Source: Strigamia acuminata
Lineage: Eukaryota
Direction: 5' to 3'
Length of the DNA: 64,000 bases
Assembly (NCBI GenBank): GCA_949358305.1
Contig: OX442314.1
Coordinates: forward strand, 33,418,001-33,482,000
Shown here: positions 4,301 through 58,881 of the stretch, one piece after another
Numbering within the stretch: the stretch's first letter is position 1
Layout: every line of letters begins with the position of its first letter
The notes under the pieces: generated by a model
Told to the model about the DNA's origin: nothing
Seen by the model: only the letters and a program-made list of their open reading frames with translations
Databases searched by the model: none
Program-made: the position numbers and the translations under genes

Positions 4301-4301
4301 A

Positions 4302-7159: not shown

Positions 7160-7540
7160 TGATGAAAAACACAAACACAACGGCCAGAACACAAAATCAG
7201 TTCCTCAACTCCGTAGAGAAATTTTAGGAGGGCGCTATAAGAAATTGATGCTCTGGGACGTGTGAGATGAATTTGTATGATGAAATATTTCACTCGCATC
7301 CATAATGGTGGCGAGAAACAAAACCAGTTCCGCAACTCCGTAGAGAAATTTTAGGCGGGCGCTATAAGGAGTTGTTCTCGGGGCACTAAACGAATAGCTG
7401 AGATGAAATACACTTTACTTCTAACTCATATGTGGGGATGAGAATAAGACCAGTTCCGTAACTCAGATGAGAAATTTTACACGGGCGCTATAAGGAAATA
7501 TTCTCACATCGTTGAACGAGTAGAAGTGATGAAATACACT
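7160..7540 (-). repeat. Three tandem ~126-bp structured repeats (duplicate of 40497-40877)
   Basis: Invariant core CTTATAGCGCCC-3-TAAAATTTCTC-4-GAGTT-2-GGAACTG on the minus strand, with covarying stems. Confidence 0.85.
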
Positions 7541-7667
7541 TTTCGGTGTTGATTTTGTAGTTGAATTGCGCAAAGAGAATGGTGGCGCAAAATGGGTAGT
7601 CCTACGGTCTTCCGAGTGACGATGTTGTTGTCCCGTAGAATATCTAATTTAATGAAATCGTTATTGT

Positions 7668-26854: not shown

Positions 26855-26962
26855 CAGGGCCGTTTCTACCTATGAGGCGAAGAGGCGGCCGCCAGGTGGC
26901 CATGCCGTGGTAAGTAACTTTACCAAGGCCGCCTCTTTGCCTCATAGGTAGAAACGGCCCTG
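26855..26962. mobile_element. Palindromic hAT-type MITE (108 bp)
   Basis: ~36-bp inverted ends starting CAGGGCCGTTTCTACCTATGAGGC; 8-bp TSD AGAGGAGC; same family as 6040-6205. Confidence 0.9.
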
Positions 26963-37636: not shown

Positions 37637-38310
37637 ATACTCTGGTTTGACTCAAGAGGGTGCCCTTCTCCCATTGGCCGAGCCGCATTACTCCTACCTC
37701 AAATTTGTATTACTACCACTAGGAGAAGTAGTTTTTATTTTTATTATCATTTGTGATTGCTATAACCATTTAGGTTAATATAATTTCGATTATTTGTATA
37801 CATAAATATTACTTCTTTTAAAGAAATAAAGTTATATGAACATATAAATCAAAAACTCATTTTTGTTTTGTTTATCGGTTTTTTGGTCTGGACCGAACAC
37901 AATTTTTGAAGTATTTATTAGATGCTTTTTCTGGAATAACAAACAAAATGTCAACAAGTAATTATAGCAGTTTCTGTTCATCACCCGATCTTATTAACCT
38001 TTTGGAATTTCCTGTTGTTGGATTACGTAAGCAAGGAACTAGACGTGGTGGCCATGCTCCTTCAATTCCAGTTGCCGAATTTCAAAAATTCAAGAGTGGT
38101 CGACCTATAAATAGGCAGGCGAAACAAATCGTGTTGAATATTTACAACAAAGTTATAAATAATCGATCGCAAATTGGATATAAAAAACTGGAAAAAATTG
38201 TGTCGTGTCTCACTGGAATAGGATTAAATTCCGTACGCAAAATTAGAAAGGAGTTGCTTGATCAGGGTGAGTAAAAAGATTTAATAATTAATATTTAATA
38301 AAAATAAAGC

Positions 38311-38983
38311 TGTCACGATTAATTCTGTTGGTATAATTAATTCCTAACAATATTGCGCAAAAACTAATTCGCGCAATAGTAATGGGCAACGTTCGTAGAT
38401 TTCCCTAAACCTTGTTTCCTTCAAATGAGGACATCCAGAAACTCAGGAAACCTAATACTCGCGTTTGACTAACATAATTTATATTGGACAGTTTTTTGCT
38501 TACGGCGGGTGTTGTAGTCGTAAAAGAATGGAAGCACGATGATATTAACCTAAAGTGGAAAGGGGATATCATCGGGCAGTGATAATATAAAAGATGGCGG
38601 CTTAGAAAATAGCGCAATAGGGTTAGATGTAAGAGCGCTTGTTGAAGGCGCAAATCATAGCAGACTAAATCTAAATGTTACTAAGGGAAATTGGTGTTAT
38701 CCGTTAGAGAGCATAAGAAGAAGTGATTAAACTTAGGATGATTGGAAAGAGGAAAACTCAGTCATGTGACTGGTCAGATCAATTAGAGAAGGGGGTGGAA
38801 AGGTGAAAATAGGAGTTCAATTGTTAAGAATAATGATATGCGCATCATCCAGATTGCGCATTCATTAAATGAAGATGAGTAAGCGAGATGAATCATTACG
38901 AGTGTCAGAAACAAGAAAATATTATAAGAAATAAGATTGGGTTATTCTAAAATAAAAATAGGCGGGTAGACGTGCCCGTGACA
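38311..38983 (-). repeat. 3' LTR of the large Gypsy element
   Basis: TGTCACG...CGTGACA inverted ends; about 6 substitutions versus 58209-58881. Confidence 0.97.
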
Positions 38984-38996
38984 TCCCCCTCCCCTT
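38984..38996 (-). promoter_or_regulatory. Polypurine tract
   Basis: AAGGGGAGGGGGA on the minus strand, abutting the 3' LTR. Confidence 0.92.
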
Positions 38997-39376
38997 AAAC
39001 CTTTATTATAGTTGTTGAAATAAAGGCAAAGAGAGAGAGACTCACTCAGATCAATACAACAATAATACTCTGGGATAAATACAATCAAATCTTGGTTAAC
39101 ATACGAAATAAATGTCTAGATTAACATACTCTTGATTAAATATGATGATTATGACTATTCGGGATCGTCACCAGATAATAATAATAAACAAAAATCAAAA
39201 ATTAACTCATCAGGAAGCTTGAGAATAAATCTACCGACCGACTTGTAAATGAAAATTATAAATCAGTAAGGTTAGGAATAATAAACAAACATTTTCAAAT
39301 AAACTGTATAAAAATCATCGAATAAAGCCTAAACAATTTTTATGGACGAAGACAAGACTAACTAAACACGCGACGC

Positions 39377-39449
39377 CAGGGCCGTTTCGACCTATGAGGC
39401 AAAGAGGCGGCCGCCTCAGGCGGCACACTGACAGGGGCGGCATAGAAAT

Positions 39450-39480
<31 letters not shown>

Positions 39481-39542
39481 GGGGGGGGGGGCGGCATTTT
39501 TAATGCTCGCCTCACCACAGATATTTACTAGGAACGGCCCTG
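39377..39542. mobile_element. hAT-type MITE in the Gypsy 3' UTR
   Basis: Same as 6040-6205; TSD CGCGACGC. Confidence 0.9.
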
Positions 39543-40496
39543 CGCGACGCTCACAGGAGGACATGGACTAAATCTTTTAGGATTGGACGGACTTGAGGCT
39601 ATACACTTTAGTTCAATTTCAGCACAATAAAAATATTTTACCCATTTGCTTGTAAAACGAAGCAATAAATTTCTACGCGGATAAATTTTAAACACGAAAA
39701 ATATACAACTAAAGAACGTCACAAGAGAATTTATCTTACGAACAGGGGGTTTTATTCGGATTGGATACCTTTAAGGAATATGGCGCAAATAAATGCGCAA
39801 AACAAAACAAGGTAAGGGATACGATACATGAATGTACACTTAACATCAGGTAGGTATATAAGGAATGATGGGAGAAATAAACGTAAAACATGAAAATTGC
39901 GCAATATTGGCGCGATAAACAAAAATATAAACATGACACTATTTGGAATCATCAAAGGAAAACAATAAAAATGGGGATAAAGGCATCCTCATGCACAACC
40001 GGACCGGTTGCCACGGGAAAATTATCACGGTTAGAAACATTAGGCATTATGAAAATTGAATAAATACTAAATTTGAAAAATCACAATAATATATCACAGT
40101 TATGAGTATCACAAATAATTATCACTATCATGACCTATTCCAGTAATTCAAATGATACAAACTAAAATTAAACGTAATCATCTCAATTTGAGGAATTTTA
40201 AAAATTAGAATAATTTCTGGAATAAATCAGGATTTAAATTCAAAATTATCACAATATAATGAAATTATAATAATGGGAAATAATAAGAATAAAGGCACTT
40301 TAGACACTAAAAGTCACTAATTGTTCGGCTAACAGTCTGGTCTAAAACGTCAAAAATAAAATATAACTAAATGAAAACACTTCACTTTTTGGAGCACTTA
40401 TCCAGCGGTGATGAAGATCAGATAAATTTGCGCAATAAATGTTTCCAGCAGTCTGTGGAATATTACACTTGTTGAAAAACACTTAGCACAAAATGA

Positions 40497-40877
40497 TGAT
40501 GAAAAACACAAACACAACGGCCAGAACACAAAATCAGTTCCTCAACTCCGTAGAGAAATTTTAGGAGGGCGCTATAAGAAATTGATGCTCTGGGACGTGT
40601 GAGATGAATTTGTATGATGAAATATTTCACTCGCATCCATAATGGTGGCGAGAAACAAAACCAGTTCCGCAACTCCGTAGAGAAATTTTAGGCGGGCGCT
40701 ATAAGGAGTTGTTCTCGGGGCACTAAACGAATAGCTGAGATGAAATACACTTTACTTCTAACTCATATGTGGGGATGAGAATAAGACCAGTTCCGTAACT
40801 CAGATGAGAAATTTTACACGGGCGCTATAAGGAAATATTCTCACATCGTTGAACGAGTAGAAGTGATGAAATACACT
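40497..40877 (-). ncRNA. Putative cis-acting structured RNA array: three tandem long hairpins in the Gypsy 3' UTR
   Basis: Compensatory stems CCUC/GAGG, CCGC/GCGG, CCGU/ACGG and CCAGAGCA/UGUUCUGG, CGAGAACA/UG(U)UUCUCG, UGAGAAUA/UAUUCUCA. cUACGg loop in two units. G-U pairs fit the minus strand only. Confidence 0.7.
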
Positions 40878-41004
40878 TTTCGGTGTTGATTTTGTAGTTG
40901 AATTGCGCAAAGAGAATGGTGGCGCAAAATGGGTAGTCCTACGGTCTTCCGAGTGACGATGTTGTTGTCCCGTAGAATATCTAATTTAATGAAATCGTTA
41001 TTGT

Positions 41005-44000
41005 TTATTGAGAGTTACCCGACAAGGTTCGGTAAGGTGTTGGCATTCGAAATGATTTTATCATGTTTAACGCCACGTTGACCACAACTCTCATCGCGTC
41101 TCGGTAGTTGGTGGCACCTTGCCGGTTAATCTCATTTCTACAATGGTCCAAGAAGAGTTCTCCGTATCGGCGATACAGCGAATTGAGGAGTGGTCTGGCC
41201 TCTTCCGGGCTCATGCGTAGGTCTGCAGATGCGAGGGATTGGAAAAGTTGGCGAACTGACGAAGCAGACATTCCAAATTGGAGGCACGGTCCGTTGGCAT
41301 TCGCAAAATTGCATTCGACCGCAGCTGGTGGCAGAAGGCTGGGGAGCAGCTCCAGGGTGATGCGGGGTGGCGTGTCATCCCAAATTTGCGATCCTTGAGC
41401 CGGTGGAATAGATGGTGCTGTCATCGGGTAAAAACCTGAATCCGTCATCAGATTGCGCAATTCTTGAAGGCGCAATTCATCCGACCGTCTCTTTTCTTCC
41501 TCTTTTTCTGCTTGCTCACGAGCTTTGCGTTCGGCTGCTTTGCGGTGGGCTTCTGCAACTCGGGTTTTTTCCAACTCGTGCTCCGCCTCTCGTTCTTGGC
41601 GTCTTTTCTCCTCCATCATATTATTATAGTCTCTGTTGTCCTGGACTTTGTAAAGGTGGACGGAGATCTCACGATGAAGGGTCCATATCAAGATCTCAAT
41701 TGCGGTTTCGGAGTCGTACGTGCTACACTCGGACATTCGTTTTTCAACTTGTCGCGCAATGTAGGGCCGTTTGTCCATCATTTCTTTTTGGGTCGTGCGA
41801 AAATCTCCTTGGTAGACGCTAAAATCTTCTATCATCATGAAGGTGATGAGTGTGTTCCAGGCCTTCCAGGGGATTTGGAAACGAGTTTGGGAAACTCCGG
41901 GTCCCTTGATGGAGATCTGGACCTCGAATTTGCGCAAGAATTCTTCTACGACTTCCAACGAGTTAACTGGTTTTTGGGTCACTCCATACTTGTCATACGC
42001 CAATTCGCAACGGAAAGCGACTTTTTTAAATGAAAGTCCAGGTCCGATATTTGGAATTGCGCAGTCGAGTCGGGATCGGTAAGGTGATGAGTCCGAAACG
42101 AGAGTCGACGTCACTGGAATCTTTGCGGTGGCAGCCGTTGTGGTGGACATGTTAAAGTTGGCGCCCGACGACGTTGTTGAGGTTACATTGCGCGGGATTT
42201 CATACTAAGGTCGAAATAACTAAGGTCGAAATTATTCCTTTTCATAAAATATTTTCTTAGTCGTATGTAACTAAGGGCGAAATGATTAAAGTCGAAATTA
42301 CACATACCGAAATGACTAAAGTCGAAATGAATAAGGTCGAAATCCTGTTCCTATCTTATTCATGAATAAGGTCGAAATCCTGTTCCTATCTTATTCATGA
42401 ATAAGGTCGAAATGACTAAGGTCGAAATCCTGTTTCGACCTTATTCATGAATAAGGTCGAAACACAACATTTTTATATGAATAAGGTCGAAACACAAAAA
42501 CTCAAAAACACGAGAATTTCACACGATAATCTTGTGTCTTCTCTCGTTCTGTAATAACATAAAAAATGTTTTTAATCACATGTTTTTAGTATTTTCAGGA
42601 AACCAGAGCAGCTTCTAGAACTAACCTTTTCTCATTTATTAAAACTAAAAACACACGTAAAAAATAGTACGAAACTCTATTAAAACTGGAAAAACACGTA
42701 AAAGATCATAACCATGAAAAACCAATTAAAACATAAAAAAAAACCTGAAAAATCACCAAAAAACCGAAAAAAAACTGGGAAAAAAACATTAAAAACCGTA
42801 AAAAAGGGTTTAAAAATGAAAAAAACCCTAATAAATCGTAAAAAAATGATAAAAACGAGTTAAAACCAGTTGAAAACCATGAAAAACAATGAAAAACCAA
42901 AAAAAAATATGGCGTCAATGTGCTGCAGTGAAGCACCGGGTAAATGCGCTAAGCAGCCTGCCGGCACGCATTTTGTAATAGATACGGTGTTTTGGGCAGT
43001 GTTTTTTCCATTGTTTAATCAGGCCAGTGTGTTACCAGTAGTAACCCACTTTATAGTGCCAATTAACTTTCCAAAAAGAAATGAAATCAAAGTCAAAAGG
43101 AAAACAAATTTATTTAGGCTAAAATGAATTTTTTTTTTATTACTTATTTACATAATAAATGAGAAAAATGAGAAAAGGTTAGTTCTAGAAGCTGCTCTGG
43201 TTTCCTGAAAATACTAAAAACATGTGATAAAAAACATTTTTTATGTTATTACAGAACGAGAGAAGACACGAGATTTTGTTTCGACCTTATTCATATAAAA
43301 ATTTTGTGTTTCGACCTTATTCATGAATAAGATCGAAATTACATATAAAAAAATTGACTACAGTCGAATTGACTAAGGTCGAAATCCTGCTTCTTCCTTA
43401 TTCATGAATAAGGTCGAAATAACTAAGGTCGAAATCCTTTTTTTTTACCTTATTCATGAATAAGGTCGAAATTACATATACAGTAATGACTGGGGTCGAA
43501 ATAACTAAGGTCGAAATCCAGTTTCGACCTTATTCATTTCGACCCAAGTATCCCATCCCCATTGCGCCCAGGAAATTGCGCATAAGTAATCGGCGTCACT
43601 GGTAAAGTTGGAATGTTTGAAAGTTTTACCTGTTGGCACGATGAAACTTCGATTGCTGGTGCAATTGGCGAAATCGTGTAGGTTTGTGAAAACACATCGG
43701 CCGAAGCAACAGGGGCAGTCGACGCTGGTAACGGCGACGGTGAAGCTGGAAAAAGATCGGCAGATAAATTTTCATTAATATTTGAATTGTCAGTCTCAGG
43801 ATCAGGAATTGGTGAATTCGGTGTTGATGCTGATAATTGCGCTTTCACTGCTGGTGTCAGTCTAGCGCTCAGTGGCGGTCCGCGTGGCTTGTTGACGACA
43901 GCGCGGGGATCACGTAATCGGGAAGAACCAGGCTTAACAGATGGAATGTCGATATCCCGGATGTCAATCATCTTTCGTTCAAGTCTGCGGACGTCACTGA

Positions 44001-45225
44001 TTTTAGCGGTGGGAACACTACCGCGAATTTCGTTCGTGATGTCCAGAATCGACGGGGTCACACTCATCGTGGATTGTGCATCGAATTCTACAGGTCCAGC
44101 GGCAGCAAGTGAACGTCGAGAATCGTCCATGCTTTCATTGCGCAATTTTTCTTGCGCGGAATCGTCCGCTAGCACTGATGGTTCTGGAATGAATTGCAGT
44201 TGTGGCACTGGTCGAAGCGCCGTCTCTGTTGGTGGAGTTGAAAATTCAACATTAGACACAGTGGAATTGGAGTACAAACTTTCGGTTTCCTCTTTGTCGG
44301 TTACGGTGAGCGTAGCCATTTTCTCGGCCGCTTTGGCAATTGTCTCCGCCGAGGGTCTGGGCACGAATTGTTCCGTCTCCGTGTCTCGAGTAGGATCATG
44401 TGGAAGCGCAGACGATGAGGATGCCAAAGTGTTGCGCACCTTGATGGCTAGTTGCTGCTCTCGATTTGGATTTTGATTCATCGAGCATGGTGGTTTACGC
44501 TGGTAGAAATATGGCAGCGCGGTGTCGGAGTTGTCGTCGATCGTGTTGAGGTCTCCTAGCGACTCCAATGCAATGCTGATCTGTTCTTGAAGACTCGCAT
44601 CGGTCCCTGGGAAGCTGTGAAAGAACTGGGGCAACGTTGGTTGCGCTTCATCCACCTCCCGCTGTTCTTGGTCCATCAGGTCCAAACCGGCGATTTCGTC
44701 GGCGAGCAAATTCGGCACTTGCGCAAAGGTGACGCGCATCAACTCGGCTGTCGGGTAAATCCAATTTCTGGGCACGATTCTCGCCTGTCTCGCCTCTCGC
44801 TGGAGTCGATGCCAATATTTAAAATGACTGGCGCGGAATCTTTGTACCATTGCTGGGGTCCCGTTCGGTGGCCGGAATTGTGGAAACTCCACTCCGATTA
44901 AATATACCTTGTCCTGGACACGACGAAACAGGCACCAGCCATAAATCTGGCGCATCCACACACGATAAAATCCGCGTCGCAGGTCGCCCCGTCCGTCACA
45001 CGCTCGGCACGTCTTAGCCACACCCGAGACAGCAAGTTCATAACCATATCCGGAACAAACCGGACATATTTCGAAGTTGGGAAAGCTCTGTTCACGTGGA
45101 TCGTTCGGATGCCAGCATGGAAATTTAGGCGGTCCGACTGCGTGAAGCGGTGGTTCGGCATAATTTTTCGGATAGGGTTCGCCTGGGAAATCCTCCTTGC
45201 ACCGACATACATGTTTGTCAGCCAT
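41005..45225 (-). pseudogene. Gypsy ORF3: 948-aa protein of unknown function once the MITE is removed (45225-43568 joined to 42193-41005)
   Basis: Junction reads ...YAQFPGRN-VTSTTSSGANFN-MSTTT... with no stop (2847 nt). N-terminal CPVCSGYG...CRACDGRG, Ser/Pro/Thr-rich middle, charged helical segment. Start context ACAACATGG. Confidence 0.88.
42194..43559. mobile_element. Foldback-type MITE disrupting ORF3
   Basis: 8-bp TSD CATTGCGC; inverted arms with AAGGTCGAAA repeats. Confidence 0.9.
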
Positions 45226-45960
45226 GTTGTCTTAACTGATTGAGGTTGTGCCTAATTGATTTCAATTATCTGGTTTATATAAACGAATTCAAACAATAGA
45301 TATATGACAAACGTTACTTACAATTAGAATTGCGCAAATAATGAACGCGCACAAAACATAACACACGAAGTTTCAACACATGATGTTAATCCATAGAAGA
45401 AGAGTGCACGAGTATCAAACGCTTCGAGAACTTTCTCACACAGGTGTCATAAAAGCACATGGGTATAAAGTGTGGGTGTTTGAGGTTAGTCGTAACTGTT
45501 TCAATAGAACGACGAACTCTAGTGTGGGGAATTGGAAGTTAACGAAAGATTGTAAATGAATGTTCTAGAAGAAGTAATCAAATTTAACGTTTGTCTTCAA
45601 TGAAAAAGTTTAGCATATGCAAATCTAGATACGCATAGACACATAAAACTAAATTGAAATAATAAATTGGAAAAAATAAACAATCTAAACACGTGGTGTT
45701 TTGAAAATTCAATTATAAGTGTCACACTCTAGTGGACAATCTTGTCCCTACTAGAAATGGACTTAGTCAATTTTGAAACGAATAAATATGAAACGTAGAA
45801 CGAATAACATAAAACATAAAATATTTAAGAATAAAGAAACATAAAAACATAAATGAAATTTTTTCTTCAAAGTTACGATGAAATTACACCGGATTACATT
45901 GGATTTTTTTTTTTGTTTTCTTTTTTTTTTTTTTTTTTTTGAAAAAATAATCGGAAAAAA

Positions 45961-46988
45961 TTATTTGAAAGAAAGAAAATAAGCAGTGAAAATATCTAGT
46001 GTGTTAGCAGTATAGTTTTCGACATGCTTGTCGATAATTTCGACATCTTTTAAGGTTAGGAAATTAATTTGCGCAAAATGCCAATGGCGAAGTTCAACAA
46101 CGTTGTATGGTTGTGTTTTTCTGCCATTTTGGTCCATTAAGATGACAGTGTTGGGGCCCACCAATTTGTGAATGATATAGACTCCCTCAGTTCGCTGGCG
46201 TAAGCCTGCTGCAAACTGTCTGTCGGCGGAAGAGGGTTGCCGATTGCGCAACCTTACCCAATCGCCAGGACGAAAATCGTGTGCGCGACGATTCAAATCG
46301 AACCATTTTTTGTGGCGGATCTGGGATTCGCGCAAATTGTTCATCGCCCTTTCTCGCATGGTGGTAAAGGTTCCCCATCATCTGTGTCACTATCAATGTC
46401 ACCAGGGAATCTGGCTTCTTGGCCTGTAACTAACTTAAATGGAGAGTACTTTAACGAAATTTGATACGCCAAATTGATTGCCAAAACAAAATAACCGATA
46501 TTTACATCCCACCTGTCGTGGTCGTCTATGTAGGCCAAAATGCAGTTCTTTAAGGATTGGTTCAGGCGTTCGGCAATATTGCCTTGGGGGTGGTATGCTG
46601 CAGTGTAGCGGTTTACTGCGCCTAATTGCTGGATTTGGCTGCGAAACTCAGGTGATCGAAAAGCAGGGGCATTGTCGCTGATTATAATTTTGGGGAAACC
46701 CCAACGTTTCGTAAATTTCTGAATTTGCGCAATTGAAGTTGCGATGGTCGAATCTTCCGTTAGTCTTACGTCTAACCAACGACTCGCTGAGTCGACCATT
46801 ACGAAGGCATAGCAATGGCCGCCCACTGAACGTGGTTTTTTGCCATAGTAATCAATGTATATTGCGGAAAACAAGTGGCGCGCTCTCGACATTATCATTT
46901 TGCCATAAGGCAAGCGATTTAATGGTTTCGCGCGTTGGCAAGCCTCGCAAACCTGGATCCATGTTTGGACATCTTCTCTCATTTTGGG
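45961..46988 (-). pseudogene. pol: Integrase core and C-terminus of the large Gypsy pol
   Basis: CEACQ, IDYYG, SDNA and AERLN (D,D35E) motifs. Preceded by TGA at 46989-46991 where the conserved Trp is expected; frameshift near 46350. Confidence 0.92.
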
Positions 46989-49210
46989 TCAATAAACACG
47001 CGTCTTTAAACGATGGAGGGTTTTTTCTCTTCCCATGTGTCCCACTACTGGAGGGTAATGCATTGCGCGGAAATATCGTTCGCGCAATTCCAAGGGGAGA
47101 TAAATTTGACGCCTTTTGCGTATTTCATTAATGTGGACTGGTGGAAATCGACACAACATATCTTTATGCATACCAAAATTTTGCGCGCCTTTTTGAACTT
47201 GCGCAGCTTCGACTGGATCGACCGGCAGCATTTGAGCAGTTAAGTAGAATATCAACTCACGCGACCATGGATCTTGTCTCTGAGCAGCTATTATTTCAGC
47301 GGCATCTGGTAACATTTCAAATGGTGGATGTTCAATGGGTGGATCGTGTTCCAATTCAGCCTGTTGTTCCGCTTCAGTGAGCCTTCTGTCCGATTCTGTA
47401 AATGTTCGTTCAGATCTCGGGCGTAGCCTTGTCGGAGTTTGAGGCATTCCACCTCTTGGCACTGGATATTCCACCGGCGAAGGAAAGTCTCGGATCGGAC
47501 TAAAACTGTCAGTGTCTGATGACGAAGTGTCAGAGTCCGGCTCGGAAGTGTATCCATCGGGGCGTTGTTGTCCAGAGGGTCCTGGTCCGGGGTCGAACAC
47601 TGGGGGCACAGTCGGTGCTGTATCAGTTGTTGTTGACGGCGAAGACACAGGAGAGGTTGGAGGAATAGGAGATGGTGATATTGGAATGGGTTGAGTAGGA
47701 GAAGGTGTGGGAAAATTTGGAATTTGGATAGATGTTGATTTTGGTGTAGGTTTTGGCCTTGGTGGCAAAATATGAGAAGGAATTCCAGCTGACTTTCGGG
47801 GTCGTCCTTTAGGTCTAGGAATTGGTGGAGTTGGTATTTTGGAAACAGGAGTTGGTGTGGAAATAATTTTTTTACGAGGAGGTAGAATATGGGAAGGAAT
47901 TCCAGATGACTTTCTGGGTATTCCTTTTGGTTGTAAAGTAGGGAGAGTTGGAGCTGGAGGAATGGAAATTTCTGATTTGCTTGGAGAACTGGGTTGGTTA
48001 GGGAGCGTAGGAGCAGGAATAAGAACAGGAACAGGACTGGGAGGTGCTGTGGGAATGGGGGAAACCACTAAACGAGGTGTTTTTGGCGTCCTTTTACCTT
48101 TTCCAACTTTCTGTGCTTTTAGCAATTTTGGATGTTTCCATTTCTTAATATTAGCTCCATATCTCGGTAATTTTGGAGATATTTTCGGAACCAAAGTGGG
48201 GTCTCTTAATCGAGCTCGAGTTCTTGTCGCAATAGCACGTTTGGCACGAGGGGAGAGCACTGGAATTATCATAATCTTACGTGGTCGTCCTCTTTTCTTC
48301 GTCAATATTGGAATTAATGAATGTTGTCTGCGCGTACGAAGTGGCACTGAAACACGAACTGATGGAGAATTAGGTGAAATTACTGGTGATGTTACTGGAG
48401 TTGTTTGTTGAGTTGGTTGCGCAACTGGAGTTGGCGCAGTTGATGGTGTCGTGCTCACAGTAGTTCGACGAGGAATGAGGGATTTCCTTTTTCCTTTCGT
48501 TTGTTTAGTCGGTGAAATGGCTGAAATTAAAGTTGATTTAATAAATTTATCTTTAAACATTTTCTTAAACTGTCTATTAATGTCTTTTGGCAACTCGGAG
48601 ATGATTGACAATGCTGGCCATTGATTTCCGTCGTCGAAGTACGCCATATAACACGCTTCATCGACGAGTGGACTGTCATCTTCCTCGTCATATTCGGGTG
48701 GGTCGACCGGTGCTCGACTTAATGCGTCGGCCACTCGATTCTTGCACCCTGAGCAGTGTAGGAACGTGAATTTGTATTCGCTTAGTGAGAGTACCCAACG
48801 AGCAAGTCGGCCCGTTGGCTCTCTTTGCTGAAATAACCACTTCAAAGAACGATGATCACTCTCTAAATAAAATGGCATCATTTCTAAATAAGCGCGGAAA
48901 CGTTTCACTGCCCACACGGCTGCTAGGCACTCAATTTCAGTCACATTATAGTTTTTCTCAGCACTGTTAAGCGCACGAGAAGCGAAAGCTATTGGTATCC
49001 TTTCTCCTGCGTCATTTAATTGCATTAAAGCCGTCCCCAAACCGGAGTAGCTTGCATCTGTTTGAAGGATGAATGGCTTTTTCCAGCTGGGAAAACGTCT
49101 CTTTAGCGTTGGAGTCGCTATTTGATCTTTAAGATAATCAAAAGCTTCTTGTTGCGCTTCGTTCCAATGCCAAACGGCATCTTTTTTAAGTAATGGTCGG
49201 AATACCTCAC
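46989..49210 (-). pseudogene. pol: RT connection, RNase H, long low-complexity insert and integrase zinc-finger start of the large Gypsy pol
   Basis: LQTDASYSGLG, ECLAAVWAVKRF, SDHRSL and ADALSR motifs, then about 450 aa rich in P/T/S/K/R, then H.PPVVGHMG.EKT. Confidence 0.92.
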
Positions 49211-52200
49211 TGTAGTGTTGCGTACAACTGTCAATAGCTGGCGCTGTCAGCATGATCACCTGGCGGCGCATGGCATTTGATCACATGCTGAATAAAGCTG
49301 AGTAATCAGTTCATCACCTGAATGCATCGCGTCCACTTCCTTTGCGTAGCTAGAACCTCACATTGGCGACGAGGATAAACAGAATGCTAAATCCAGTGCC
49401 ATCAAGTATTTTGGAATAAAATTTGGACAGTTGCAGAGACTATTACGATGGCAACCGGGTTAAATTTGCCGACAGTGGCAAATTTCGTGTTAAGTGACGG
49501 TAATTTGGACCAAAAATGGAAAAAATGGTCAAGTGCATTTGAATTCTATTTGTTGGCGGCAAATATCGTCGAGGACACTCAAAAAAAGGCTTTGTTGTTA
49601 CATCTCGCCGGTCAGGACGTGCAGGACATATATGGGACGTTTGGGATGAAAGATAAGAAGAATTATGATGCGACCGTGACAGCACTGGCGACATATTTCA
49701 ATCCGCGCAAAAATTTGCGTTATGAACGCCATATTTTTCGCCAGCAAGCGCAGGATGGCGCCGAATCGATGGACACATACGTGACGAGGCTTAAAACACT
49801 AGTGAAAACATGTGAGTACGGCACTTTAGAAGATGATTTGTTAGTTGATCAAATTATAGAAAAAGGCCGAGATAAGGCATTAAGACGCAGGTTACTACGT
49901 GAAGAGACAGTCACATTGGATTCGGTGTTAAAAATGGCGCGAGCTGCCGAAGCGAGCGAAAAACATGCCGTTTTGATGGAGCGAGATGGAGGAGCGAAAA
50001 TTAAAGAAGAAGACGTGAGTCAAATACGAGAGGAGAAGAAATCGTTTAGAGGAAGAGGAACGAAGCGAGCCGGAAGTCAATTCCGAAAATCTGGAGCAAA
50101 ACCACAAAATATCGGCGATCGGCAGGGAAGCAAACCGCGAGAAGGTGCGGAGTGTTTCCGTTGTGGCCGTGCAGGTCATCTGGCCAACGAGTGTACCATT
50201 GCGAAGGACAAAGAATGTGGATTCTGCCACAAGCTTGGGCACTTTGCGAAGGTTTGCCGAATGAAAAATGCAACGCCGGGACGAGGTCGAGGTGCGAAAG
50301 ACCGCGTACAATACGTCGGCGTGAGTGGAAGTCCAGATGGATATGACAGTGATTGCTCGTTTCGAATAGCGACGTCGATGAAGGAGGACTGTGTAAGAGT
50401 GACAATCGCGCAACAGGAGGTAAAAATGCTTATCGATTCGGGTTCGTCAGCGAACTTGATAAACTTAGAAACATGGAACTTATTGAAGAAGCGAGGAGTG
50501 ATTGCACAGCCATCCACGACGACGTTGTATGCGTACGGTATAAAAACTCCTTTAAAAATAAGTGGACAATTTTTTGCAGAAATTAAGAAAGGAGATCGAA
50601 CAGTTAATGCGAAATTTGTGATCGTTCCGTCGGGAGATGTGTCGTTGCTGAGCAGGCGGACTTCAAAGGAACTAGGGGTGTTGAAAATAGAAGAAGAAAT
50701 AATCCGTTCCGTGGAGGAGAACGCTGCACTGGACGAGACATTGCTTGGAGTACGGGGCGAGTTAGCCGATAAAGTGAGAAAACATCGAAATTTATTTGTA
50801 GGAATCGGAAAATTAAAGGACTATGAGCTGGAACTTTACATTGACGAAACAGTGAAACCAGTTGCACAGAGTGTACGACGTATACCGTTTCACATTCGCA
50901 AACAGGTGGATCTGGAAATCGATAGACTGCTCGCCGAGGATATCATCGAACCGGTGACCGGACCGACAGACTGGGTGTCACCTATGGTCCCAGTGAAGAA
51001 AGCGGACGGGACAATCCGAATCTGCTTGGATATGCGAGCCGTCAACCAAGCGGTAAAGCGCCGGCGCCATCCACTTCCAACAATGGAAGAAGTTTTGGAA
51101 GAAATTGATGGGGCCGAGGTGATTTCCAAACTCGACTGCAGATGGGGGTATCTGCAGATACCGCTGCGAGAAGATTCACGTAAATATACGGTTTTTGTAA
51201 CCCACCGTGGGTTATTTCGTTATAAAAGACTTTTCTTCGGGATTGCTTCGGCACCCGAAGAGTATCAGCAGATTGTCCAGACTATTCTCGAGGAATGCGA
51301 GGGGACGAAAAATAGTCTGGACGACATTGTCGTTCACGGCAAGACAGTCGCGGAGCACGACGCGAGGCTGGTGAAAGTGTTAGAAGTCCTAGAGAAGAAT
51401 GGACTAACTTTGAATGCTAAAAAGTGCTGTTTCGGACTAACTAAGTTGAATTTTTTAGGTCATGTCATTTCTAAACACGGGATTTCAGTGGCCGACCAGA
51501 AAATCAAAGCGGTGAAGGATGCGAGTTCACCGAAGACGGAGACGGAAGTGCGTAGTTTCTTGGGTTTGGTGAATTATTGCGGAAGGTACATCAAGGACTT
51601 TGCCACCCTAGCGGAACCGCTGCGAGTAGTCACGAGGAAAAGCGGAGGTTTTAAGTGGGGCAAGGAACAAGAGAAGGCGTTCGTGTTGTTGAAGGAGGCG
51701 CTTTGCAGGGCCGAGACGTTGGCATTTTTCCGAAAAAATGCGCAGACGAGGTTGATCGTCGACGCGTCTCCAGTCGGGCTCGGGGCGGTCCTCGTGCAGC
51801 GACAGACGGACGGACACAACCAACCAATTGCGTACGCGAGTCGTACGTTATCCCAAGTTGAGCGCAGATACAGCCAAACGGAGAAGGAGGCGCTCGCAGT
51901 CGTTTGGGGCTGCGAGCGTTTTCGAATTTACCTCATCGGATTAGCGTTCGAATTAATTACCGACCATAAAGCGTTGGAGGTAATTTATTCAGTAAAGAGT
52001 AGGCCATCGGCGCGCATCGAAAGATGGGTATTGAGGCTTCAACCTTTCGAGTTTTCGATACGGCACAAGCCGGGATCGACGAACATCGCAGATGCCCTTT
52101 CGCGACTACTTCCAGAAGGGGAAGGAAAAACCATAGTTGGAGAGACAGAGAAGCATGTTCATTTTATTATGGCGAATGCAGTACCGAAAGCGATGACTCT

Positions 52201-53871
52201 GGAAGAAGTGAAATTGGCGTCACGGAACGATACCGAAATATGTGCTATTTTGGATTGCGTGAAACGAGAGAAGAAGTTTAGCAAGGAATTACAACGTTTT
52301 GAAATAATGAGACATGAATTATCGGCGAAGTCGGGAGTTTTGTTGCGAGGAACACGCATTGTAATGCCGAGAAGCTTGAGGAAGAAAGTCATTAACATTG
52401 CACACGAAGGTCACCAAGGAATTGTTCGCACCAAACAGCGATTACGACAGAAAGTATGGTGGCCGGGAATGGACGAAGAGGTGAAAGCAGTAGTTCAACA
52501 ATGCCGGGCATGTCAGTTTGGAGGCGCAACGGAGAAGGCAGAGCCGATCCGAAGTACTGTTTTGCCTAAAGGACCTTGGCGGAATTTAGCCATCGATATT
52601 TGCGGACCGTTCGACGATGGACGTTCAATCGTGGTACTCGTGGATTATTATTCGCGCTGGCCGGAAGCGGCAGTGTTAAAATCTACGAGAGCGGAGAAGT
52701 TAATCGAGTGGTTGGAGCAGGTATTCGAGAATTGGGGTTTACCAGAGAGTATAACGTCGGACAACGGGCCCCAATTTGTTTCGGGTGAATTTCGGACATT
52801 TATGAAGGACCTGGGGATACAGCATCGAAGGGTAACACCGTATTGGCCTCAGGCCAATGGCCAAGTTGAACGCCTGAATAAATGCTTCGTGAAAGCGTTT
52901 CGTGCAGCACGCGTAGAAAACCAGGGTTGGAAAAAGAGTCTGGGAAAATTCTTACAGAGCTACCGTAGCACGCCGCACCGAACGACAGGCGCGACGCCTT
53001 TTGAACTGATGACGGGACGGAAAATGCGTGATAAAATCCCGCAAGTATTACAAGAACAGAAGGGCAAGTTGCATCGAGAGGTGAAGATGAAAGATGCAAT
53101 TGAAAAGAAGAAGACGAAAGATTACGCGGATGCGAGAAGGAAAAGCGAGGAAAACACCATTTCCATTGGAGACAGTGTGTTAGTTTCCAAGCCAAGGAAG
53201 CATAAGCTTGACACGGCATTTGAAGAAGGAGTAGCGATAGTCCAGCGGAGATCCGGAAATGCGGTGCTCTTAAGAATGCCAGATGGGAGATGTGTAAAGC
53301 GAAATATCTCGCACGTGAAGCGTTTCATACCGATTGAAGACGATGAGTTGCTGCTGCCAATACCAAACAACAGAGCAGATGCGTTAGAGGAGATTCCAGA
53401 AGCAGAGATGGATGCACCACAGCCTGTGGCACCCCCAGTGCGAGACGAACCACCATTGCGGAGGTCTGCCAGAGAGCGACGTCCACCAGACTTCTTAGGA
53501 ATCGCGAAGTGATGACAAGGAAGTGTTGTTTAATGAATTTACGATGAATAATATTGCTAAAAGAATTCTTTATTAATTGTTCAGGCCTGAACCAAAATTG
53601 TTAGAGTTACGAATTAATGAGATATGTAGAATCGATTAATTTTATTGTCGTTATATAATTTAATTTATATGTTTTATTATTTCCTCCTATGGAGGTTAAT
53701 TGTTAAAGAAAAAGAGTGATGTAGTGTTGCGTACAACTGTCAATAGCTGGCGCTGTCAGCATGATCACCTGGCGGCGCATGGCATTTGATCACATGCTGA
53801 ATAAAGCTGAGTAATCAGTTCATCACCTGAATGCATCGCGTCCACTTCCTTTGCGTAGCTAGAACCTCACA
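49211..53871 (+). mobile_element. Intact Mag-like Ty3/Gypsy LTR retrotransposon (4661 bp) nested antisense in the host pol
   Basis: 152-bp LTRs (49211-49362, 53720-53871) with no differences seen; 5-bp TSD CTCAC; PBS TGGCGACGAGGAT (tRNA-Ser(GCT)-type); PPT AAAGAAAAAGAGTGA. Confidence 0.97.
49448..53512 (+). CDS. gag-pol: Single-frame Gag-Pol polyprotein (1354 aa)
   Basis: Two CCHC knuckles, protease LIDSGS, RT (RLFFG, SLDD), RNase H (VDAS, EKEALAV, TDHK, ADALSR) and integrase HHCC + D,D35E; no stops. Confidence 0.97.
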   Translation: MATGLNLPTVANFVLSDGNLDQKWKKWSSAFEFYLLAANIVEDTQKKALLLHLAGQDVQDIYGTFGMKDKKNYDATVTALATYFNPRKNLRYERHIFRQQAQDGAESMDTYVTRLKTLVKTCEYGTLEDDLLVDQIIEKGRDKALRRRLLREETVTLDSVLKMARAAEASEKHAVLMERDGGAKIKEEDVSQIREEKKSFRGRGTKRAGSQFRKSGAKPQNIGDRQGSKPREGAECFRCGRAGHLANECTIAKDKECGFCHKLGHFAKVCRMKNATPGRGRGAKDRVQYVGVSGSPDGYDSDCSFRIATSMKEDCVRVTIAQQEVKMLIDSGSSANLINLETWNLLKKRGVIAQPSTTTLYAYGIKTPLKISGQFFAEIKKGDRTVNAKFVIVPSGDVSLLSRRTSKELGVLKIEEEIIRSVEENAALDETLLGVRGELADKVRKHRNLFVGIGKLKDYELELYIDETVKPVAQSVRRIPFHIRKQVDLEIDRLLAEDIIEPVTGPTDWVSPMVPVKKADGTIRICLDMRAVNQAVKRRRHPLPTMEEVLEEIDGAEVISKLDCRWGYLQIPLREDSRKYTVFVTHRGLFRYKRLFFGIASAPEEYQQIVQTILEECEGTKNSLDDIVVHGKTVAEHDARLVKVLEVLEKNGLTLNAKKCCFGLTKLNFLGHVISKHGISVADQKIKAVKDASSPKTETEVRSFLGLVNYCGRYIKDFATLAEPLRVVTRKSGGFKWGKEQEKAFVLLKEALCRAETLAFFRKNAQTRLIVDASPVGLGAVLVQRQTDGHNQPIAYASRTLSQVERRYSQTEKEALAVVWGCERFRIYLIGLAFELITDHKALEVIYSVKSRPSARIERWVLRLQPFEFSIRHKPGSTNIADALSRLLPEGEGKTIVGETEKHVHFIMANAVPKAMTLEEVKLASRNDTEICAILDCVKREKKFSKELQRFEIMRHELSAKSGVLLRGTRIVMPRSLRKKVINIAHEGHQGIVRTKQRLRQKVWWPGMDEEVKAVVQQCRACQFGGATEKAEPIRSTVLPKGPWRNLAIDICGPFDDGRSIVVLVDYYSRWPEAAVLKSTRAEKLIEWLEQVFENWGLPESITSDNGPQFVSGEFRTFMKDLGIQHRRVTPYWPQANGQVERLNKCFVKAFRAARVENQGWKKSLGKFLQSYRSTPHRTTGATPFELMTGRKMRDKIPQVLQEQKGKLHREVKMKDAIEKKKTKDYADARRKSEENTISIGDSVLVSKPRKHKLDTAFEEGVAIVQRRSGNAVLLRMPDGRCVKRNISHVKRFIPIEDDELLLPIPNNRADALEEIPEAEMDAPQPVAPPVRDEPPLRRSARERRPPDFLGIAK

Positions 53872-55354
53872 CTCACTTGTCTTGGAAAAGTTCGCAATAA
53901 AAGATTGATAATAACCCACCATACCTTTGAAACGTTGTAACTCGCGCAAATTTGTTGGCGCAGGATAATTTTGGATAGCTGACACTTTTTTTGGATTTGG
54001 AGAAATTTGACCAGATTCCACGATGTGGCCCAGAACTTCGAGGCGCTGTTGACAGAGCTCGGTTTTGTTGGCGTTCATGGTGAAACCGGCGTCAAACAGT
54101 TCTTCCAAGACGAGGCGCAAATGTTGAACATGCTCCTCAAATGTTTTGCTAAAAATAATAACATCATCAATGTATACAAATACAAATTTGTACAAATATT
54201 TGGCCAAGGTTTTGTTCATCGCTCTTTGGAGTGTTGCAGGGCCGTTGATGGGGCCAAAGGGCATACGAACGTATTCAAACAGTCCTCTATGTGTGATGAA
54301 GGCCAAGAATCGCTCATCTCCCTTGCGCACTCCGATCTGGTGAAAGGCCTCGCGCCCGTCGATTATCGAGAACCAATGTGCACCTCCTAAATACGCAAAT
54401 ATATTGTCTATATCCGGAAGTGGATACACATCCGGAATTGTTTGCGCATTTATGGGTCGGAAGTCCATCGCTGTTCTCCATTCTCCGGTCTTTTTGGGCA
54501 CGACCACTGGAGCGACGGCGCAATCACTTTGTGAACGGCGAATTATACCTTGTTGTAGTTTCTTATCGATGTATCTGTCAATAATTGCCTTTTTCGCAGG
54601 GTTTACAGGTCGTACTGGCACATGAATCGGACGAAAATCCGGTTTCAAATTAACCTCATATTCCGTATTATTACATAAACCGATTTCCTCACGGAAAATC
54701 TGCGAAATTGGCTGGAAAGTTTCTATTAGTAGTTTAATTTGCGTAATAGTCAAATGGTTCCATAACTGGTGGTAAATCCAATCGAGATCGGTCGGATTCT
54801 CACTGGGCTGGTACTGTAAAAAGTTGATGTTGTTAACAATTGGATTTGAGTCATTCTCACCATTATCAGGTTGCGGAGAGGCGTTGGTGTTGTTGATTAA
54901 CTTCTTTTTGTCGTTAATATCCTTTGGCTCGTTGCGCAATCAATAGTTTGGCGATGGGACAAATAACATTCAATTTGTGACGAAGGCGGCGCAGTCGGCG
55001 AAATTGACTTAATGTTAACTTACGAGAAATGATTTTCTTTACTTTACTCGAAGCTCTCGCAGTTTCCTTCCGCTTTGGTGACCAAACATTTGACCACGTC
55101 GTTCGACTGCGGTGCCTAATTGTCTTTATTTGACGTTGTGAGTCGTCGTTCGGATACTCAAAAACCTCATTTTTCAATGGTTGATGTAATAGCAACACAC
55201 AGTTAATGTCATTGGGTGGGGGTGGTCTCTTGAGTATTTTATTTGGAACAATCTCACTTATTTTAGCTGATGGAGTTGCTGATTTATCCAGTTCCTCCGG
55301 TGCCATTGGTAATACGAGAATTGACTCGGATTTTTTGGCGTCTTCATAGGTCAC
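53872..55354 (-). pseudogene. pol: Reverse transcriptase of the large Gypsy pol, with upstream linker
   Basis: WRTAMDFRPIN, YPLPDID, RMPFG and YIDDVIIFS motifs; frameshift near 54930. Rejoins 49210 as NFSKTSE|VFRPLLKK when the nested element is removed. Confidence 0.95.
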
Positions 55355-55357
55355 GAA

Positions 55358-56287
55358 TTAACGAATTTCGTCTGAGCCAGCCAAGCTCCACTGGCTCCGT
55401 CCATGATCGATGGTTGCTCCGACTGCTTGATTAAAGTCTCGTCCGAGGATCAAGTCATTTTTGGCATCAGGCAACACTAAACACACGAATTTTACTACTC
55501 CTAATGGCGCTCGCAACGCAAGCGTCACTGATTTTGAGGCAGTAACTACATGTCCAGAAGCGACCTGTACTTTTTCATGTAAATTAATAAATTCGAGTCC
55601 CATTTTTTCGTGAAGTTGTTGAAATAATTCCTCGCTCATGATACAAGTTTGAGCACCTGAATCTAGAAGCGCGGTAAATGATACGTTTGCCCAAGATATT
55701 TTTACGCATGGAGCTTCTCTGCGCAATCTATCTGCGCGTGTTATCTCAATAATTGGTTCTTGAGATTCTCTAAGCTCTTCCGATGTCAACATGACAAAAG
55801 ATACCTTCATTGGAGCGATCACTTCCTTGGGCGCTTCCGCTGAATTGACACTGGAAGTAGTCTTAATAATGGGTAATTTAAGGTTTTTACTCACATTCTT
55901 GGTGATTTGTTTCTGTGCAGTCGCAATTTGCAAAGCTGTCGACTTCGAAACAGGTCCAGATGCTAGTTGGAAAGCCACAGGTTGCAAAACTGAGGTTTTC
56001 CTTTGATTCGTCACTGTCGGTGATGAAGATGAAGATGTGGACGATACAACACTAATTCCGGGTTTAGACTCACGAGGAGTGACAGAAAGAGTAGTTGTTA
56101 CTGGAATAATCCTATCGGAAATGTTCTCGTCAAGGGTGATGTCGGGTGGAGCACGTCTTGTTGATTCCACACGTTTTACGCTTGTGGAGACCGGTTGGTT
56201 TACTTGCGGCCTGGTTCCGCCGGTCGAGGAAACTTCAGGCCGTCGGAGTTTTCCTGCCTCTCGAAAACTTTGTAGCACACAGGACAA
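55358..56287 (-). pseudogene. pol: Aspartic protease region of the large Gypsy pol (-1 frame relative to gag)
   Basis: LLDSGAQ and LILGRDF motifs; an in-frame TAA at 55358-55360 interrupts pol. Confidence 0.9.
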
Positions 56288-58107
56288 ATAGGGCGCCAGG
56301 TTGAGTTTTCAATCATAAACCACCAATCCTTTTTTGTTTTGCGCCAAGCTGCACCTTTTTCGGGAAACTTGACACTTGTTGGAGGTTTTGGTGATGACGG
56401 AAATGTAACAACGGAGGTAGAACAGACATGGTCCTTTGGGAGATCTGCAGGGGGCGCAATTGTGGTTGAATTTACTGAAATGTTCACCTTTTGCGCAGCT
56501 CCGGCGACAGAACTCTTTTTGGTGTCCACTTCCGGTTCCGACTCGCTGCTGCTACTTGAATTTGGTTCCTGTGGCGGCGAAGGTCGCTCAGGTCGGGCTT
56601 CCAGCGCAGCTAGTTCTAACATAAGTTGTTGTTTACGATAGCGCGTAAAACGTCTGGCGTCGTTGGACGTGGAAGGTTTAGGTTCGGCTTCACCTCTGGA
56701 CTTGTCCACGGATTTCAACACGGTGGGGGATGAGGGGTTTGCTTCTGAAAAAGGTGCAAACTGATCAACGAGACCCAAGTTTTTATACTCAGTTTTGCGG
56801 TGAGAGTCGAGTAGTAGTCGATTGTCCACGTCGTTTCCCATTTGAATTGCTTCGTCAATTGTTTTGACGTGCATTGTTCTCAAAAGTTGGACAACGTCGG
56901 ACAACAGCATGTTCTGTGCTTTCTCCCATTGTAATCCAGGGTCTGTGTAGCCTGCAATTTCTAAATAGTATATTATTTCGCTGAGGAAAGTCATGGTGGA
57001 TTCTCCACTGCGTTGCTTGCGATTTGCTATTTTCACGTTGGCAGCCGCTGAATTCATGGAGAATGCCTTACGAAACAATGCCTCGAAATCATTCCACGTT
57101 TTGGGTTTTGGTTTAAGTGCCAACCACCAACGTTGCGCCTTATTACGGGTTGCTTGAATTATATTTACTTTCAAATACTCCTCCTCGGGCATGCGTGTGG
57201 AATACATATGCGCATATAATTGCGCAAGAAACAAATTAACAGAGTCAAGTGTAGCCTTCTCAGGGTCAAAGTATGGGAGTTTTTCCTTATAATTGTTATA
57301 TCCTCGGGAAGAGTCCTCTCGTCTTACTCGAATTGATGGTAGAGACAATTGGGCCCTTACTTCGGATGGGTGCCCTGTGTTGTTAATTTTGGCACATAAT
57401 AAAGAATTCATCACCTGCTGATTGGCTTTTGTTGAATCCACAATTTGTGATGCCACGGACGGACATTGAGTAAAAGTAGTGGCCTGCGTCATTACCGGTG
57501 GCGTTGTTGTTGTAGACGTCGGTTGCGCAGTGATGGTTGTGGGCGCAATTTGTTGTTGGTGGCTCGCTCCTCCACACTGAGGAACTTCCGTGGAAAGTTC
57601 ATTTCCTAATGGTGCCGAATTGCCTATTACCCTTATGGATCCATGAGAGGACCCACCATCCTCTGACGGGGGTGTCGTCGGACGTGGAGGGCTAGTGCCT
57701 TGTTGGTAAATGCTACGCATTTCTTTGAGTAATCCCTGTGCTTGAACGAAAAACTGATTACGAATATCACACATCAATAAAGCTTCGGAATGTAAAATTG
57801 CCGGATTCATTGATATTCCTGACACGCCAGGAGTGAAGAAAGCTGGAGGCACGAGCTGATACGCTGGTGTTGACGTGGCAACTGTCGTTGGCGCAGAAAT
57901 GTTTACGCCAGGTATTGGAGCCGACATGTTGTCGCGAAAAGTTTGCGGCATTGAATTCGCAATGGTTATCAATAACTCACTTTGTTCCGCTCGTGCTCGC
58001 CTTAAACGCTCATAACGATGCCAGTCGAGAGACGAAGCCAGCTCGTCCAAATCAAAGGGGTCTCTTACAGTGGGGTTTTCCTCACCGTTTCCCAACTCAT
58101 TCGACAT
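56200..58107 (-). CDS. gag: Gag of the large Gypsy element (635 aa)
   Basis: First ORF after the PBS; capsid-like motifs KAQRWW...TWNDFEALFRKAF...RKQRSGES. No intact CCHC knuckle. Confidence 0.88.
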   Translation of the reverse strand: MSNELGNGEENPTVRDPFDLDELASSLDWHRYERLRRARAEQSELLITIANSMPQTFRDNMSAPIPGVNISAPTTVATSTPAYQLVPPAFFTPGVSGISMNPAILHSEALLMCDIRNQFFVQAQGLLKEMRSIYQQGTSPPRPTTPPSEDGGSSHGSIRVIGNSAPLGNELSTEVPQCGGASHQQQIAPTTITAQPTSTTTTPPVMTQATTFTQCPSVASQIVDSTKANQQVMNSLLCAKINNTGHPSEVRAQLSLPSIRVRREDSSRGYNNYKEKLPYFDPEKATLDSVNLFLAQLYAHMYSTRMPEEEYLKVNIIQATRNKAQRWWLALKPKPKTWNDFEALFRKAFSMNSAAANVKIANRKQRSGESTMTFLSEIIYYLEIAGYTDPGLQWEKAQNMLLSDVVQLLRTMHVKTIDEAIQMGNDVDNRLLLDSHRKTEYKNLGLVDQFAPFSEANPSSPTVLKSVDKSRGEAEPKPSTSNDARRFTRYRKQQLMLELAALEARPERPSPPQEPNSSSSSESEPEVDTKKSSVAGAAQKVNISVNSTTIAPPADLPKDHVCSTSVVTFPSSPKPPTSVKFPEKGAAWRKTKKDWWFMIENSTWRPICPVCYKVFERQENSDGLKFPRPAEPGRK

Positions 58108-58188
58108 GATGAAAAAATAATGAAAATGATTAATAATTTAAACGAAAACTTAACTTTCTTGCGCGTTTTCAGCCTAAATAAGCGAGGA

Positions 58189-58205
58189 TCCTGTCAGGCT
58201 CGCCA
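58189..58205 (-). promoter_or_regulatory. Primer-binding site, tRNA-Arg(ACG)-like
   Basis: TGGCGAGCCTGACAGGA, 3 nt inside the 5' LTR. It resembles the complement of the 3' end of animal tRNA-Arg(ACG); the tRNA identity is from memory. Confidence 0.75.
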
Positions 58206-58208
58206 TGT

Positions 58209-58881
58209 TGTCACGATTAATTCTGTTGGTATAATTAATTCCTAACAATATCGTGCAAAAACTAATTCGCGCAATAGTAATGGGCAAAGTTCGTAGATTT
58301 CCCTAAACCTTGTTTCCTTCAAATGAGGACATCCAGAAACTCAGGAAACCTAATACTCGCGTTTGACTAACATAATTTATATTGGACAGTTCCTTGCTTA
58401 CGGCGGGTGTTGTAGTCGTAAAAGAATGGAAGCACGATGATATTAACCTAAAGTGGAAAGGGGATATCATCGGGCAGTGATAATATAAAAGATGGCGGCT
58501 TAGAAAATAGCGCAATAGGGTTAGATGTAAGAGCGCTTGTTGAAGGCGCAAATCATAGCAGACTAAATCTAAATGTTATTAAGGGAAATTGGTGTTATCC
58601 GTTAGAGAGCATAAGAAGAAGTGATTAAACTTAGGATGATTGGAAAGAGGAAAACTCAGTCATGTGACTGGTCAGATCAATTAGAGAAGGGGGTGGAAAG
58701 GTGAAAATAGGAGTTCAATTGTTAAGAATAATGATATGCGCATCATCCAGATTGCGCATTCATTAAATGAAGATGAGTAAGCGAGATGAATCATTACGAG
58801 TGTCAGAAACAAGAAAATATTATAAGAAATAAGATTGGGTTATTCTAAAATAAAAATAGGCGGGTAGACGTGCCCGTGACA
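58209..58881 (-). repeat. 5' LTR of the large Gypsy element
   Basis: 673 bp, about 99% identical to 38311-38983; followed by TSD AAGC. Confidence 0.97.

Follow-up and report, generated by a model that had tools for sequence, protein, structure and literature searches.

According to the available parts of the published accounts, the CTE of MPMV and the DR of ALV/RSV are hairpins near the 3' end, and the DR acts in both export and packaging (PMC9143442). Type D CTEs contain two nearly identical loops, each binding NXF1 (PMC4338338, PMC7551171, as excerpted), and an account of the gamma-CTE, also available in part, places AAGACA in a stem-loop (PMC7551171). In Cer1, a Gypsy element of C. elegans, genomic RNA export requires the element's own cysteine-loop protein CERV, and a keyword search found no stem-loop or RRE-like cis element for Cer1 in the sections at hand (PMC10309623). 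The ENE is described in an excerpted paper as a U-rich internal loop that is long enough for a U-A-U triple helix and is flanked by G-C pairs (PMC12501189). For the 3' tandem arrays of Gypsy elements, the function is stated as unknown, and the accessible sections gave no mention of RNA structure in these arrays by keyword (PMC11963269). The sections at hand of a survey of envelope-carrying Gypsy elements likewise gave no mention of RNA structure or UTRs by keyword (PMC13524379).

In this study, a window of 64,000 nucleotides from Strigamia acuminata, which is the whole stretch of DNA analysed, was found to carry an array of three hairpin units (40497..40880, minus strand) that are spaced at 126-127 nt and lie in the 3' UTR of a complete Ty3/Gypsy LTR retrotransposon whose sense strand is the minus strand. 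The element was recognised as Gypsy by its LTR pair, primer-binding site, polypurine tract, target-site duplication (4 bp, at the element ends) and the domain order PR-RT-RH-IN. The 5' LTR (58209..58881) and the 3' LTR (38311..38983), both on the minus strand, are 673 nt each and 99.1% alike, and the element is young. The primer-binding site after the 5' LTR (58188..58205, minus strand) is presumably of the tRNA-Arg type, and the polypurine tract (38996-38984, minus strand) lies beside the 3' LTR. Pfam detected gag (weak, E 0.0012), protease, reverse transcriptase, RNase H and integrase in Gypsy order. The gag, protease and reverse transcriptase frames occupy 53815..58137 and the 3' part of pol (RNase H, integrase) occupies 46341..49280, both on the minus strand, and the latter frame is interrupted by stop codons. 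In the pol frame at 46989-49280, RNase H is separated from the integrase zinc finger by a long insert of about 500 aa that is rich in proline and lysine. The closest of 26 relatives shares 44% identity with the reverse transcriptase, and two extra sense-strand ORFs (ORF3 and ORF4) are present downstream of pol.

This copy of the element is broken by a nested Gypsy element in pol, by the pol stop codons and by a foldback repeat block (42206..43540, no strand assigned) between ORF3 and ORF4. The nested second Gypsy element (49211..53871, plus strand) was inserted into the host pol, has identical 152-nt terminal repeats and one open gag-pol frame of 1373 codons on the strand opposite to the host, and is very young. 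The foldback block has inverted ends with 110-nt arms and many short internal repeats, and is likely an inserted non-autonomous DNA transposon. Elsewhere in the window, inverted arms of about 950 nt (18886-19887 and 30070-31010), built of 54-nt and 35-nt tandem units, surround a MULE transposase frame (27344-28576), and the structure at 18886-31010 appears from its sequence to be a foldback Mutator-like element.

The host element is also rich in the palindrome TTGCGCAA, with 15 copies in its 14.6 kb (38311-58881 without the nested insertions), about 27 times the Markov expectation. These copies are located in the 3' LTR, in the UTRs and within gag, pol, ORF3 and ORF4, while none was found in the nested Gypsy element and one in 26 kb of other window DNA. 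Two copies flank the array on both sides (40903 and 40428). Since the flanks of TTGCGCAA do not consistently extend its pairing when inspected by eye, the palindrome looks like a DNA-protein site, and we take it to resemble a C/EBP bZIP site.

The array lies between the last ORF stop (41005) and the 3' LTR (38983), in agreement with its earlier placement in the 3' UTR of a Gypsy element; it starts 130 nt past the ORF4 stop at 41005 and ends 1.5 kb ahead of the polypurine tract. The units are about 127 nt long on the sense strand. The first (5'-most) hairpin unit is at 40754..40864 (core 40831-40788) with the apical loop AUCU, the second at 40628..40733 (core 40705-40662) and the third (3'-most) at 40506..40615 (core 40578-40535), all on the minus strand, and the latter two have the cUACGg loop that had been reported for two units. 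A linker precedes the first unit (40865..40875, minus strand) and recurs at 40739-40749 and 40616-40626. The earlier note had counted four linker copies, bordering every hairpin; three repeats are there, but the fourth (40498-40508) is degenerate and differs at 40503 in all three sequencing runs described below.

The 22 specified bases of the core pattern have exact matches on the minus strand at 40553-40578, 40680-40705 and 40806-40831, so the bases described as invariant are shared by the three units, but the core varies across the family, in which the first-unit core sites 40822, 40827 and 40830 differ in other copies. There are exactly six exact matches to this pattern in the window, three of them inside a duplicated block (7216-7494). 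No further match was found in the window with up to 3 mismatches (0.01 expected by chance), and a covariance model scan of 38000-59000 found no fourth unit, the best other score being 11 bits. Between units, the 44-nt cores are identical at 38, 36 and 42 of 44 positions (36/44 the same in all three), and the flanks at 17-22 of 34-40 positions (50-61%). A duplicate array (7160..7543, minus strand) is identical at 421/421 bases and is located inside a 12.3-kb duplicated block. This block (476-12810) is a copy of 33812-46147 with 99.9% identity, and carries the 3' half of the element together with flanking DNA. The first copy of the block runs up to a gap of 200 N (12811-13010) and so may be a duplicate made in assembly. 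Being identical and within this duplicate, the array at 7160-7543 gives no independent support, and the independent units number only three.

The upper stems (CCUC/GAGG, CCGC/GCGG and CCGU/ACGG) and the middle stems were confirmed as previously described, and the G-U pairs fit the minus strand, in line with the pairing proposed for the sense strand. The folding z-scores of the units are modest, with -2.42, -2.42 and -2.04 on the minus strand versus -0.93, -1.33 and -1.79 on the plus strand. Two other 130-nt segments of the 3' region, 38950-39079 and 39730-39859, which are not repeated, have sense-strand z-scores of -3.8 and -3.0 (25 shuffles each). The stability of the units is unremarkable beside these segments, and the case for structure is made by covariation and not by stability. 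RNAalifold added a pair just below the core that was absent from the earlier note (C-G, C-G and U-A in the three units, predicted probability 0.85-0.97), which leaves a 4-nt UUAY bulge. Read from the base upward, the predicted core opens with a 2-bp helix, the 4-nt UUAY bulge and a second helix of 2 bp. A 3x2 internal loop separates these from a 4-bp helix in which two pairs covary, and above an A-rich internal loop of 9x2 the fold closes with a tetraloop hairpin of 3 bp. In the predicted unit, the variable middle stem carries this weakly paired core, which alone has model energies of -0.6 to -4.5 kcal/mol and a pair probability of 0.31-0.71 in the covarying helix. According to these models, the weak pairing would suit a fold stabilised by a protein or by tertiary contacts. 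A candidate 3-bp loop-loop complementarity, UUA/UAA, is common to all three units and shows no covariation. Pairing of the pre-core pyrimidines with GGAA was also considered and rejected, as its probability was at most 0.09.

Between the units, 4/15 pairs of the refined model differ on both sides, a count reached in 6/500 shuffles, while a control with the partners slid by 1-3 columns gave 0-1 double-changed pairs; the first model had 5/18 compensatory pairs. As these counts come from only three related sequences, with the structure derived from the same sequences, they are suggestive and do not amount to R-scape proof.

Variation among family copies was assessed using contigs from three sequencing runs under one organism label, which were aligned to the array (127, 60 and 6 contigs over the array by run) with the variants left unphased. 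Three of the six runs listed contained part of the stretch, with no RNA run among them; runs X4 and X6 yielded no aligned contig, which does not demonstrate absence. Among the variants listed, 42 at 41 sites were tallied, 8 of them read from one loose end. Varying sites amounted to 3/132 in the core versus 38/249 in the flank (P=4e-5), and to 3/132 versus 30/249 (P=9e-4) when the 8 loose-end sites were left out. For unpaired positions only, 2/60 invariant core sites varied versus 23/143 flank sites (P=0.01), which indicates that the loop sequence itself is constrained. In the core and middle stems, 6/6 changes preserve the pair on the sense strand (null 0.54, P=0.025), a count that includes the pair at 40827, added after the variant had been seen and with a predicted probability of 0.02-0.07; without this pair 5/5 changes preserve pairing (P=0.047), and with the two loose-end changes also left out 3/3 (P=0.16). 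At 40827, in the first-unit core, the alternative letter predominates in each of the three runs; site 40830 in the UUA segment is altered in one contig with no listed partner change.

With the basal stems included, 10/16 changes in all stems preserve the pair (P=0.38), and in the basal stems by themselves 4/10 do so, assuming an unchanged partner. The view that the flanks diverge yet keep pairing is supported by the changes in the upper and middle stems, but less so by the basal stems. The proposed basal stem of the third unit did not hold up in the family: in run X3 the contig that spans it has changes at 40612 and 40613, and none is listed at the partner bases. In the first-unit basal stem, 40756 and 40862 are both changed in run X3 (unphased), and matching changes at 40760 and 40858 were seen in different runs. 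With the basal stems broken and the core and middle stem kept, the constrained object is the core plus middle stem of about 75 nt, and not the 126-nt unit. That the array appears to be a real, selected sense-strand RNA motif with conserved unpaired loops, of a kind known from retroelement 3' regions, is supported. This selected structure had been proposed earlier, and the compensatory changes between units and the independent variation among family copies both argue for it.

The same alignments cover the last ORF4 codons (41005-41100), where, among the variants listed, the 7 varying sites are at third (4), first (3) and second (0) codon positions, a weak hint that this orphan ORF is kept as coding. 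ORF4 (41005..42204, minus strand) has 381 aa from the first Met and a long charged helix in the middle of the protein; it gave no homologue by sequence search and no Atlas match. Its predicted structure (pLDDT 51) had no clear fold match, the best Foldseek E being 0.09, and a structural comparison of the model reached a best Z of 7.2, on helical parts. A PC4-like reading of the ORF4 N-terminal part was unsupported by this low-confidence model. ORF3 (43534..45231, minus strand), also an orphan, has a low-complexity C-terminal part and an N-terminal cysteine finger with two CXXCXGXG-type motifs (Pfam E 0.025, below cut-off), and neither a homologue by sequence search nor an Atlas match was found for its N-terminal part. 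This finger is the sole cue for the binding by ORF3 that the earlier note had suggested. With no homologue or usable model for ORF3 and ORF4, a reader of the array could equally be a host factor or Gag.

Relatives of the motif were searched for in several collections. The earlier note did not recognise a known family, and the Rfam 15 covariance models agreed, since they matched the array only at E 6.8 and 8.9, far below gathering; in the Rfam scan, 0 of 18 matches lay inside the array. The core pattern, exact or relaxed, had no match in viral contigs, and the exact core had none in metagenomes. Relaxed patterns gave 3 matches in GTDB and 30 in metagenomes, which were all single copies (33/33), paired in the covarying helix in 3/33 cases and scored at most 19.1 bits versus 94-100 for the true units; we treated them as chance matches and not as relatives. 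Eukaryotic repeat DNA is scarce in such viral, metagenome and prokaryotic collections, so this blank is a weak one. No description of the motif was found among the open-access papers searched, by concept or by core letters. Judged by these comparisons, the sequence and fold of the array motif appear new to every library searched.

Among the described systems, the nearest models for the array are the type D CTE of MPMV/SRV and the DR of RSV/ALV. The type D CTE, in the excerpts available, is also an irregular hairpin near a retroelement 3' end with repeated, sequence-conserved internal loops (PMC4338338, PMC7551171). The array has this CTE-type feature, namely predicted hairpins with repeated and sequence-conserved internal loops near the 3' end. 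However, the type D CTE is one hairpin with two loops, whereas the array has three separate hairpins with no Rfam match, and the CTE motif AAGACA is absent from both strands of 40480-40900. The DR of RSV/ALV, as far as the consulted part of its description goes, is similarly a hairpin of about 115 nt that is repeated near the 3' end (PMC9143442), but the DRs flank src while the array units are head to tail in a Ty3/Gypsy element, the two being likened by description. CERV of Cer1 and ORF3 are both cysteine-motif proteins of Gypsy elements, a likeness drawn by motifs only from the available part of the paper (PMC10309623). The Ogre/Retand-type arrays, according to the accessible sections, share with the array that they are family-specific and lie beside extra ORFs in a long pol-to-3' LTR region, but they vary in copy number, whereas the array units have diverged from one another but keep a fixed core and stems that covary (PMC11963269).

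In LTR elements, an array at this position is included in every transcript that ends in the 3' LTR, among them the genomic RNA. To our knowledge, the export and selection of full-length RNA by Gypsy elements are largely unknown outside a few model species. By analogy with the systems above, we tentatively propose, with a probability of about 45%, that the array is a putative multivalent protein-docking site through which the full-length element RNA would be exported from the nucleus and later packaged. The constrained loops, together with a core that is weakly paired alone, fit a site read by a protein and present in three copies for avidity. The fixed loop bases may be read by the protein directly, or may form a tertiary fold which the protein reads, and the triplication would raise avidity, much as the two CTE loops do in type D retroviruses. 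Candidate readers are a host export factor, Gag or either orphan ORF. This proposal assumes a special export need of the host element, and the fact that retroviral packaging signals are mostly located at the 5' side counts against the packaging role. In a more specific form, the 44-nt core would be a new compact fold, closed by loop-loop contact of the UUAY bulge with the A-rich loop and recognised by the element's own orphan protein ORF3 or ORF4, which we regard as improbable.

The same evidence bears on other explanations. An array 130 nt past the ORF4 stop would be common to all transcripts, and the extra ORFs far downstream of gag-pol need a separate translation route, so the units may control the translation or localisation of the ORF3/ORF4 mRNAs or of the genomic RNA, as a 3' enhancer or a germ-line transport signal. 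I-shaped hairpins with conserved internal loops serve as 3' translation enhancers in plant viruses. In the transposon localisation signals known so far, helix shape is what mainly counts and not a fixed loop sequence, whereas in the array the loops are the constrained part, and we consider control of translation or localisation unlikely. The fixed core also brings to mind a new catalytic or ligand-sensing RNA, such as a self-cleaving ribozyme or a riboswitch-like element, as 36/44 core positions are the same in all units, a loop-loop pairing is possible, and small ribozymes have a similar size and a similar mix of fixed loops and short covarying helices. Such a core is nevertheless very unlikely, because no ribozyme family in Rfam matched the array at E up to 10, the hammerhead core CUGAnGA is absent from the array region, and, from LTR biology, constitutive cleavage upstream of the polypurine tract would be expected to sever the genomic RNA from its 3' end. 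A twister-like reading was dropped as it had no Rfam match.

Protection from decay was weighed in the same way. Each core may be a self-folding tertiary module that shields the RNA as a nuclease road-block or stability element and might yield a stable 3' fragment, the repetition being likened to the tandem nuclease-resistant RNAs of viral 3' UTRs. The tandem units directly after the last stop codon, the conserved unpaired bases and the 3-bp UUA/UAA loop-loop complementarity in all three units speak for such a module, as does the stabilisation of the Evade LTR element by a 3' UTR structure in the excerpted report (PMC12501189). Yet the predicted fold is an unbranched hairpin and not a three-way junction, it has no Rfam family match, the UUA segment is altered in one contig (40830) with no listed partner change, and the nearest AAUAAA is about 740 nt downstream (39756). 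The ENE of Evade, as described in the part available, has a long U-rich internal loop (PMC12501189), whereas the array is without one and its conserved loop is A-rich; where the middle stem meets the core, the U-rich loop measures no more than 2x2 to 3x3 and contains C substitutions, so the ENE candidate of the earlier note was not sustained. Overall, we hold protection from decay to be improbable. In plant Gypsy elements, the interval from pol to the 3' LTR commonly contains family-specific tandem arrays with no known function, judging from the accessible text (PMC11963269), and the units could be ordinary 3' UTR tandem repeats of the Ogre/Retand kind, a triplicated chance hairpin whose constraint reflects recent homogenisation. 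Only three units exist, with modest z-scores and basal stems that are not conserved, and the motif was not found outside the family in the collections scanned. Homogenisation, however, does not account for core-helix pairs that changed on both sides, nor for the fact that each core varies so little from one family copy to the next, and we give this possibility little credence. Equally little weight falls on the idea that the core works as DNA, with a promoter or a protein-binding site on the opposite strand, or as a source of small RNAs, and not as a docking site on a long RNA. Read on the plus strand, the core resembles a GC box with a TATA-like hexamer behind it, and the host element is rich in another DNA-type palindrome, TTGCGCAA, but the hexamer is altered in most first-unit copies (40827), the covarying positions indicate base pairing, and the G-U pairs suit the minus strand. 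The plus strand has Box C-like motifs, for which no matching D boxes were found. Processing into small RNAs, which had been suggested earlier, is a poor fit, since Pol III A and B boxes and tRNAs are absent from the array, T runs fall within two units, and the longest modelled helix is 11 bp while Drosha/Dicer substrates need longer ones.

In conclusion, a docking site for a protein that would promote export and packaging of the element RNA is our preferred, tentative reading of this array. To date, the motif has been seen in a single family of one organism. It is short, bounded and three-fold, with natural compensatory variants, and lies beside two orphan ORFs, and a pull-down or reporter test is therefore direct. 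If ORF3 or ORF4 does recognise the core, the two would form a protein-RNA pair of the Rev/RRE kind that evolved independently in a Gypsy retrotransposon, and both of its parts would be known.
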